Virus genome (UHGV): UHGV-0143838
Length of the DNA: 49,897 nucleotides
Strand: one strand, 5' to 3'
Origin: a virus
The translations under genes and the position numbers were made by a program. Below, piece by piece: positions 30,125 to 30,727 of this stretch (positions are counted from its first letter, which is position 1; each line of letters starts with the position of its first letter). Under the pieces are notes generated by a model. It was not told the DNA's origin. It ran no database searches and saw nothing but the letters and a program-made list of their open reading frames with translations.

Positions 30125-30155
30125 CTCAAATAAAAACCGCGTGTAAACGCGGTTT
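30125..30155. terminator. bidirectional intrinsic terminator downstream of the tail cargo gene
   Basis: AAAAACCGCGTGTAAACGCGGTTTTTTAT: GC stem with A-tract and T-tract on either side. Confidence 0.65.
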
Positions 30156-30172
30156 TTTATTAGGTAATAAAA

Positions 30173-30694
30173 TTAAAGATCATAATCAACATTATGAGTA
30201 TCTATTCTACATGATGAATAAGTAATTCCGCTTTCACCACTAATATTTACGCCAGCCTTTACCTTCCCTGATTTCGTAACATCAACAAAGAATTGCCCTC
30301 TTGGCATTTTAAATGCAAAAGAGAAACCAATAATTTCCGAGTCAAAGTTATTTTCATCCTCACTAATTGGTACAATAAAAGCCAATGGTGCAGATTGTGA
30401 GTTATTTTCAAAATCAAAAACACCAATACCTTTATTAAACTCGTAGGATGCTTTTTTTATTAAAAGAGTTCCACTTGCCGACTTTGCTGGGCATATTACA
30501 GACAGTCTATTTATTCCACCTACATCTAGATCTATATTCTTATCTGCTGAAGTTTTAACGTTATCTATAAAGTATGTAGCAAGCTGCTTTTCCGTTACTG
30601 GCTTCGCAAAGGAGTTTAATGGCAGTCCTGCAGCCAACAACAATATAAACATTTTCTTCATATTCTCTCCTACATTCAGCACAAACTTTACCAC
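30173..30694 (-). CDS. secreted protein of unknown function (cargo cassette inside the tail module)
   Basis: Likely start at 30661 (MKKMFILLLAAGLPLNSFA signal peptide; RBS AGGAGAG); AT-rich unlike flanking tail genes; own terminator downstream. Confidence 0.6.
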   Translation of the reverse strand: MVKFVLNVGENMKKMFILLLAAGLPLNSFAKPVTEKQLATYFIDNVKTSADKNIDLDVGGINRLSVICPAKSASGTLLIKKASYEFNKGIGVFDFENNSQSAPLAFIVPISEDENNFDSEIIGFSFAFKMPRGQFFVDVTKSGKVKAGVNISGESGITYSSCRIDTHNVDYDL

Positions 30695-30697
30695 TCA

Positions 30698-30727
30698 ATA
30701 ACCCTACTTGATTAAAGTAGGGTTATT
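30698..30727. promoter_or_regulatory. 13-bp perfect inverted repeat (AATAACCCTACTT-gatt-AAGTAGGGTTATT) overlapping the tape-measure stop
   Basis: Read directly; sits between the tape measure gene and the cargo gene RBS; no T-tract, so operator or RNA stem-loop rather than terminator. Confidence 0.5.

Follow-up and report, generated by a model that had tools for sequence, protein, structure and literature searches.

Why should a strongly AT-rich gene for a predicted exported protein stand between two core genes of a phage tail? The question is raised by UHGV virus genome UHGV-0143838, a stretch of 49,897 nucleotides here called the window, whose minus strand carries the late region of a lambdoid prophage, its head being of the HK97 type and its contractile tail Mu-like, in the same gene order as in the Shigella phages SfV, SfIV, SfI and SfII. 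Between the gene for the tail tape measure protein (TMP) and gene N, which encodes the Mu N-like DNA-circularisation or baseplate hub protein, lies a small open reading frame (ORF), the cargo gene of this text, which an earlier inspection of the letters alone (the sequence-only reading) had taken for an inserted cassette encoding a periplasmic or secreted effector. The element is an ordinary moron-type accessory gene, and it occupies a fixed accessory position of SfV/SfIV-type lambdoid prophages. Superinfection exclusion from the periplasm is its most likely role, although we give this assignment somewhat less than an even chance, and the most useful by-product of the analysis is the pattern found at the level of the slot.

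A dispensable gene in a compact tail module

The following positions are needed to follow the argument.

30726..32627, minus strand: tail tape measure gene (upstream flank); PF10145, 'W' lineage, 99% identical to that of SfIV
30605..30661, minus strand: region coding for the Sec signal peptide MKKMFILLLAAGLPLNSFA, read from the sequence; predicted cleavage after SFA
30667..30671, minus strand: Shine-Dalgarno AGGAG, 5 nt 5' of the cargo ATG, read from the sequence
30173..30661, minus strand: cargo ORF; 162-aa precursor of PHROG 5586, predicted to form a helix and an 8-stranded beta-barrel, with Cys57 and Cys151 invariant
30043..30135, minus strand: AT-richer patch of diverged sequence that includes the N ribosome-binding site and N codons 1 to ~25; co-inherited with the cargo gene
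28743..30116, minus strand: Mu N-like DNA-circularisation/baseplate hub gene N (downstream flank); PF07157

Counted from its ATG, the cargo ORF encodes 162 aa that begin with MKKMFILLLAAGLPLNSFA followed by KPV; the ORF listing gives a GTG-extended version of 173 aa (30173..30694), and the 162-aa start is the one used by every annotated relative. According to the moron definition of Juhala and Hendrix, as restated in PMC3594210, such an element is extra DNA of deviant GC content that has its own promoter and terminator and is expressed while the prophage is under repression. Deviant composition is evident here, as the GC content in 200-nt windows is 0.33-0.36 over 30100-30700 and 0.52-0.65 in the tail genes around it, and the cargo gene has a GC content of 0.34 (0.25 at third codon positions, GC3), compared with 0.50-0.58 (GC3 0.54-0.66) for nine neighbouring genes. 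The sequence-only reading was thus right to see an AT-rich gene of about 160 aa within a GC-rich Mu-like tail module, and equally right about its strong ribosome-binding site, 5 nt before the start codon.

Extra DNA is evident as well. That reading had proposed a comparison with related prophages, and relatives with flanks 95-99% identical to those of the window turn out to lack the gene: in SfIV and 26 near-identical IMG/VR prophages, TMP is 99% and N 95% identical to the window copies, and the gap between them is only 24 bp. The gap is 45 bp in SfV and SfI and 18 bp in SfII, all without the cargo gene. Since near-identical flanks occur without it in SfIV-type relatives, the cargo gene is a dispensable addition to a Mu-like tail module that is compact elsewhere. 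It is present, at 96% amino-acid identity, in the isolated phage vB_EcoM-720R4, so that both filled and empty (SfIV) forms exist among phages isolated as virions.

Where are the edges of the insert? In alignment with L065, the most similar empty site, the insert proper occupies ~30741 to 30136, about 605 bp, and is followed by the diverged patch at the 5' end of N, which reads MDFSHISSYLSSNSRSGW in the window and MDLSSFPTRPSLLSSSSGW at empty sites; below 30040, identity to the empty-site relatives is back at ~100%. To judge from these alignments, the cargo gene arrived, or is swapped, jointly with the variant 5' end of N, a pattern expected of homologous recombination in the conserved flanks. 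The individual features of the cassette do lie within a few bases of where they had been placed from the sequence alone, but the divergent segment (30043-30741) is wider than the ORF.

The tested 1.7 kb is 100% identical to E. coli chromosomes, for example that of THO-006. Family members are found in 112 of 5426 complete E. coli genomes (~2%), 101 of them at >=95% nucleotide identity (counted as a match over >=80% of the ORF) and 11 with a ~66% identical allele in the same slot, and the sole plasmid copy among these genomes belongs to the same prophage type residing in a plasmid. Carriers include many human clinical isolates, among them sequence type 131 (ST131), as well as pig, poultry and cattle strains.

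A predicted exported protein of a very small family

Over residues 1-161, the protein matches positions 1-161 of the 161-position profile of PHROG 5586 (E = 2.1e-82, 275.7 bits). This is the protein's own family, catalogued as "unknown function" and without functional annotation. Pfam holds no family matching it at E <= 1, and searches of NCBIfam and of PDB sequences returned nothing meaningful. In a word-indexed search, 10 clusters came up among 5.8 billion proteins, and an exhaustive profile search of 1.84 billion representatives gave 17 matches, which indicates a very small family.

Its full-length members measure 148-176 aa and each has an A-x-A-type signal peptide, which bears out the Sec signal peptide noted by the sequence-only reading and makes the export it claimed very probable. 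Their mature parts are hydrophilic and soluble (isoelectric point 4.7-6.5), contain exactly two cysteines, both invariant (C57 and C151), and share a core motif F-x-F-K-M-P-x-G-Q-F-F-V; signal peptide, cysteines and motif are kept down to 23-30% identity. The mature window protein has 143 aa, a grand average of hydropathy of -0.15 and no predicted membrane segment past the signal peptide. The absence of cysteine from MKKMFILLLAAGLPLNSFA means that the window protein lacks a lipobox; a possible one, LTSC, is seen in P0007, the 48%-identical Shigella/E. coli allele.

Structure prediction, also proposed by the earlier reading, was informative once the alignment was deep enough: from 3 sequences AlphaFold gave an unusable model with a predicted local distance difference test score (pLDDT) of 42, and 11 sequences were needed to reach a pLDDT of 84.8 and a predicted template modelling score (pTM) of 0.78. 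This model shows a helix (24-41) followed by eight strands, with low confidence at residues 1-20, the signal peptide. The structures it matches are generic: avidins, de novo barrels and MoaF-like proteins, with PliC/MliC no better. Taken together, these predictions strongly suggest Sec export of the precursor, cleavage behind SFA and folding into a soluble periplasmic protein made of a helix and an 8-stranded beta-barrel. Because both cysteines are invariant, a Cys57-Cys151 disulfide is probable. The predicted product is therefore best described as a calycin-like periplasmic barrel without an informative relative.

Could such a gene be a decaying or neutral passenger without current function? 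Gene loss is frequent, for close alleles the ratio of nonsynonymous to synonymous polymorphism (pN/pS) is as high as 0.8-0.9, though very few substitutions enter into it, and the databases hold a few truncated or internally deleted variants of the protein. However, none of the 15 close IMG/VR relatives has a disrupted ORF, the ORF recurs in the 101 E. coli genomes counted above, the features shared by the family persist at very low identity, and the family alignment yields a confident fold, so that we regard a mere passenger as very improbable.

An old resident of the junction

Homologues were located in the following contexts.

P0007 (Shigella/E. coli), 48% identity: between TMP and N
P0026, 39% identity: between TMP and N
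Kosakonia, Mixta and Erwinia homologues, 35-39% identity: between TMP and N
P0019, 36% identity: after TMP and a HIRAN-domain gene
P0018 (Pantoea) and P0020, 27-28% identity: without a tail module, beside ParA-like, cI-like repressor, PemK/MazE and IncFII RepA genes of plasmid-prophage-like elements

The slot is thus shared by homologues of 35-49% identity from six or more diverged lineages, which excludes a one-off insertion. The sequence-only reading had described an insertion, and this holds insofar as the gene is extra and dispensable DNA; it does not hold as a single event. The cargo is always the most diverged protein of its module (35-49% identity, compared with 45-94% for its neighbours), and members in the tail slot have a GC content of 0.34-0.40 versus 0.52-0.56 for the rest of each locus. 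These comparisons indicate that the cargo gene is an old resident of a general cargo slot, repeatedly lost or exchanged. P0020, which has a terminator of its own, is not AT-rich (GC 0.55 vs 0.50), and the position of P0018 and P0020 among lysogeny-maintenance genes implies that the family is not bound to tail function.

Two of these loci show further peculiarities. In L009 (SRR28250344), a gene at 2387-2974 for a 195-aa HIRAN-domain protein (PF08797) with a hydrophobic C-terminus stands between an SfV-type TMP and the PHROG 5586 homologue, forming a two-gene cargo, and a further ORF starts directly after, at the contig end. In L005 (Shigella flexneri, SRR36308047), the N gene that follows the 48%-identical allele is interrupted after 11 codons (5346-5412) by a sequence, GGTAATGACTCCAACTTACTGATAGTGT, which resembles an IS1 terminal repeat; this prophage is defective with an intact cargo gene, and the corresponding protein cluster has 389 member sequences.

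The junction as a slot for interchangeable cargo

Is the position special, or only the gene? Among 119 related loci surveyed in GTDB genomes and IMG/VR, each with a gene for an N homologue, TMP and N are separated either by 3-50 bp or by ~550-700 bp (occasionally 2-3 kb) of DNA with a GC content of 0.31-0.43. Gaps of the larger class contain a single ORF of 134-176 aa that reads in the direction of the tail genes. The slot accordingly spans the TMP stop codon to the intrinsic terminator before N, and is either empty or filled by one small AT-rich gene. At least six unrelated families were found there.

Family A: PHROG 5586, Sec signal peptide
Family B: PHROG 8976, Sec signal peptide, 164-170 aa
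Family C: PHROG 5485, N-terminal membrane anchor, 175-176 aa
Family D: PHROG 7115, bacterial PH domain PF08000 (bPH_1), cytoplasmic, 134 aa
Family E: Sec signal peptide, 145 aa, Serratia
Family F: 178-aa lipoprotein with lipobox LFSC, Lonsdalea

Five of the six are envelope-targeted. Families B, C and F were considered as remote homologues of A and rejected, as hhalign shows no relationship. The five other families occur at L075, L080, L087, L016, L017, L019, L020, L033, L041 and L043 and in phage SKA5 (L133 2063-2575), and in the 2.3-2.9 kb inserts of Lonsdalea the lipoprotein is accompanied by an ORF of 301-337 aa. No description of the TMP-N junction as a cargo slot was found in the literature, in a search of incomplete coverage; the SfIV genome paper does not discuss the junction, and no literature was found on the RefSeq accession of the cargo protein or on phage vB_EcoM-720R4.

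Cargo and TMP lineage tend to go together: family A adjoins the window-type (W) TMP in six distinct lineages and the SfV-type (V) once, in L009, and families B-E adjoin the V type in eight lineages and the W type in none. A Fisher test on this 6:1 versus 0:8 table gives p ~0.001 by our own calculation, which ignores relatedness. This coupling was initially considered as strong functional evidence and then downgraded, since adjacency suffices to explain it and L009 breaks the pattern; it lends weak support to functional coupling.

With this survey, the hypothesis that the protein is part of the tail or serves its assembly, with a conserved place between TMP and N, can be weighed. Homologues do occur at that position in several diverged tail modules, flanked by two tail-core proteins; nevertheless, viable phages whose tails are nearly the same (SfIV, as well as SfI, SfII and SfV) lack the gene, unrelated genes take its place in other relatives, and homologues exist outside tail modules. 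Moreover, the family-wide signal peptide is incompatible with tail assembly, which takes place in the cytoplasm, so that an exported protein should be neither a virion nor an assembly component. We give a structural role next to no credence, and infer a non-structural protein that works in the periplasm.

Hairpins on either side of the gene

Two hairpins and a distant regulator bear on how the gene may be transcribed.

30697..30727, no strand assigned: upstream inverted repeat, 13-bp perfect with a 5-nt loop, at the upstream edge of the cassette
30132..30157, minus strand: intrinsic terminator hairpin, 11-bp stem, 4-nt loop and T-run, directly before the N ribosome-binding site
46484..47062, minus strand: Q-type antiterminator (DUF1133/Phage_antitermQ), upstream of the lysis and structural genes

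The arms of the upstream repeat (30697-30709 and 30715-30727) are complementary at 13 of 13 positions, and its folding energy of -22 kcal/mol (z = -5.7) was equalled by none of 200 shuffles. The perfect 13-bp repeat that the sequence-only reading had seen upstream of the gene is therefore real, but no more than 5 of 15 close relatives have it in perfect form, the left arm (in the sense of the gene) being degenerate in 9 of the 15 and overlapping the TMP stop codon. A conserved operator or recombination site was rejected for this reason, the left arm being TMP coding sequence. In a defective relative, L058 (IMGVR_UViG_2778261416_000006, 3038-3460), the packaging, head and proximal tail genes are deleted and the Rz/Rz1 spanin genes are fused to the cargo gene, with the deletion endpoint exactly in the loop of the repeat (TAATC); the partner sequence of this deletion does not occur in the window, and the hairpin may be a deletion hotspot.

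On the downstream side, the arms 30132-30142 and 30147-30157 pair at 11 of 11 positions, with an A-run before and a T-run after, which gives the shape of a terminator on both strands; the folding energy is -20.4 kcal/mol (z = -5.0, gene strand), and the hairpin is unchanged in 15 of 15 close relatives. A simple consensus scan for promoters and terminators (29800-31100) did not report it, apparently because part of the T-run pairs within the stem, and it is clear by repeat finding and folding. Rfam gave only sub-threshold matches, at this hairpin, and none at gathering score.

To whom does the terminator belong? A GC-rich stem with a T-run follows the cargo in nearly every cassette type, and 39 of 50 distinct junctions, many of them empty, have an equivalent hairpin 43-65 nt ahead of a Trp codon conserved in N. 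The GenBank record of SfII annotates a "putative rho-independent terminator" at its empty junction (L131 1982-2020). As the terminator is found at empty and filled junctions alike, it belongs to the TMP-N junction and not to the cassette: the strong bidirectional terminator claimed from the sequence alone is there in shape, but not as part of an inserted unit. Besides SfII, the junctions of L010, L021-L023, L025-L027, L030, L032, L035, L038, L042, L048 and L119 show that a terminator before N is conserved within the late tail operon, also in the absence of cargo. It may have remained from cargo since lost, may act as an insulator, or may attenuate transcription and so set the expression ratio of tail-tube and baseplate genes.

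Proposed superinfection exclusion and its competitors

How might a periplasmic barrel serve a prophage? Both roles suggested by the sequence-only reading, lysogenic conversion and superinfection exclusion, are plausible. In a lysogen, low transcription from the 3' end of TMP or from the inverted-repeat region would express the cargo gene, and the transcript would end at the junction terminator, sparing N and the baseplate genes from read-through. During lytic growth, polymerase modified by Q would read through that terminator. In lambdoid phages, Q-modified late transcription should ignore such a signal, and it is from this that we infer read-through here. The periplasmic protein would then act at the envelope as a superinfection-exclusion factor, interfering with the tail tip, or with the ejected TMP or N, of incoming related phages and thus blocking DNA entry.

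The closest precedent is gp15 of phage HK97, whose superinfection exclusion was reportedly described by Cumby et al. in 2012. The gp15 moron adjoins the TMP gene; expression occurs in the prophage, and whether DNA entry is blocked depends on the tail region of the incoming phage (PMC3594210). Like the cargo gene, it is an extra, compositionally deviant, TMP-adjacent and dispensable gene in a tail operon with an envelope-located product. However, gp15, encoded upstream of the TMP gene, belongs to the YebO family and is a very small protein of the inner membrane, whereas the cargo gene lies downstream of the TMP gene and encodes a predicted 143-aa soluble periplasmic beta-barrel; with no sequence similarity to gp15, no Pfam match and a hydrophilic mature part, the cargo protein does not qualify as a YebO/gp15 member. 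Prophage expression and exclusion have been demonstrated for gp15, and the cargo gene is known here from its sequence.

A second group of precedents consists of Ltp and of Cor and Llp from coliphages. Ltp reportedly targets the tape measure (Bebeacua et al. 2013). In Streptococcus phage TP-J34, Ltp is a surface-exposed superinfection-exclusion lipoprotein (PMC3952083). All three are, like the cargo product, small Sec-exported proteins encoded by prophages, and they act outside the cytoplasm against incoming phages; they differ in being lipoproteins with other folds and genomic positions, the window protein having no lipobox and no detected sequence relationship to them. For the slot itself, the parallel is with P2-like prophages, which have fixed moron positions such as position 2 between tail genes G and FI, occupied by neaT or other cargo (PMC3573123). 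Both are defined sites in a contractile-tail module that hold differing unameliorated genes and are empty in some relatives, although the P2-like sites belong to another phage group and another junction, and neaT encodes an acyltransferase in the opposite orientation, whereas TMP-N cargos are co-oriented and lie upstream of the junction terminator. Tab and Tai, prophage defences that hit tail assembly (Tab via the tape measure), were rejected as comparators because they are cytoplasmic and encoded elsewhere.

Several observations weigh against exclusion by a moron expressed in the lysogen. No convincing sigma-70 promoter for the gene emerged from the consensus scan of 29800-31100; in a relaxed scan the best candidate was an extended -10 element, TGgTAAAGT, with a poor -35, whose score was reached by 125 of 500 shuffles, and better candidates were seen in some other cargo types of the slot. 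The Mixta homologue starts ~20 nt past the TMP stop and leaves no space for a promoter outside coding sequence, so that expression from the late operon only is possible. The terminator, by which morons are usually also recognised, is that of the junction, and DNA as AT-rich as this is typically silenced by H-NS in E. coli, so that expression in a lysogen may be low or conditional. As for function, the 2.0 release of PADLOC-DB contains no family that matches the protein at E <= 1, the generic fold gives no lead, pN/pS values of close alleles (0-0.94, on few differences) are uninformative, and physical linkage alone predicts the association of cargo with TMP.

Would the gene then be a helper of the late lytic cycle? 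Without a promoter of its own, the protein would be made only together with the tail genes, and might mask receptors or envelope components, sparing progeny phages from adsorption to debris, or modulate lysis. No promoter was detected, the gene is co-oriented with the late operon behind a strong ribosome-binding site, the Mixta homologue nearly abuts TMP, and with a Q antiterminator in the prophage the gene would certainly be transcribed late; its fusion behind Rz/Rz1 in L058 fits too, though it is probably accidental. This hypothesis does not account for the homologues in maintenance regions of plasmid-prophages, outside any late operon, nor does it sit easily with a gene that viable relatives dispense with, and lasting AT-richness and interchangeable slot contents are typical of accessory genes. 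We consider it rather unlikely.

Alternatively, the protein could benefit the host as a lysogenic-conversion factor, the barrel binding a small ligand or inhibiting an external enzyme, such as lysozyme in the case of PliC/MliC, and so aiding the lysogen in an animal host. An exported soluble two-cysteine protein with a predicted 8-stranded barrel would suit such a task, carriers include many isolates from patients and also livestock strains, and neaT offers a precedent as an unameliorated tail-slot moron of a P2-like prophage that can raise the fitness of its host (PMC3573123). PliC and MliC are likewise small Sec-exported 8-stranded barrels of the Gram-negative periplasm. Unlike them, however, the cargo protein has an additional N-terminal helix and no Pfam match, and PF09864, the PliC/MliC family, is not hit even at E <= 1. 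Among the loci examined, the family occurs only in prophage and plasmid-prophage contexts, and just ~2% of complete E. coli genomes, of mixed sources, carry the gene, so that a host-fitness factor is a possibility we hold to be doubtful.

If the cargo protein is indeed a periplasmic exclusion factor, a soluble periplasmic mechanism would join defences mostly known as membrane proteins or lipoproteins, and further factors could be sought by a simple genomic rule: in Mu-like tail modules, search the interval from the TMP stop codon to the junction terminator. The slot is shared by five or more other uncharacterised families, PHROGs 8976, 5485 and 7115 among them. Since carriers include ST131 clinical isolates, the gene could also affect the phage susceptibility of phage-therapy targets. 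A bolder and, in our view, improbable generalisation is that the TMP-N junction of SfV-type prophages in Enterobacterales is a terminator-insulated slot for interchangeable envelope-targeted anti-phage proteins, in which PHROG 5586 would represent a new class of soluble periplasmic superinfection-exclusion proteins intercepting the ejected TMP and/or N, with a specificity that co-evolves with the adjacent TMP lineage.

Other possible accessory regions in the window

The window contains several other features of possible accessory nature, some of whose annotations were transferred from L004 (offset +9599). Between the Q antiterminator and the holin, a gene at 44953-46344 (minus strand) encodes a 463-aa AAA_16/STAND-like NTPase, named 'ATP-binding protein' in RefSeq; the position is again one typical of morons, and the gene is a possible anti-phage defence gene. 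A hokD type I toxin gene lies at 48897-49052 (minus strand), in the region of the early/late boundary, and a DUF2441 gene, transferred from L004, at ~42863-43471 (minus strand) between the lysis and HNH/terminase genes; both are likely to be further accessory insertions.

By the tail-fibre end, an AT-rich island (~9600-22000) encodes a macro-domain protein, a ComEA-family protein and DUF4755, DUF4756, DUF6404 and DUF6387 proteins, together with RepL (~16183-16764) and two H-NS-family paralogues (~18392-18796 and ~19319-19561). Possibly the island is a mobile element in its own right, and the H-NS paralogues it encodes might influence how AT-rich prophage cargo is silenced. At ~22695-25070 (L004 13096-15471), a partial StfP pseudogene ('missing C-terminus') is followed by unannotated sequence and then by a separate gene with a tail-fibre domain; the tail-fibre region seems rearranged, and the host-recognition module of this prophage copy may be altered or defective.

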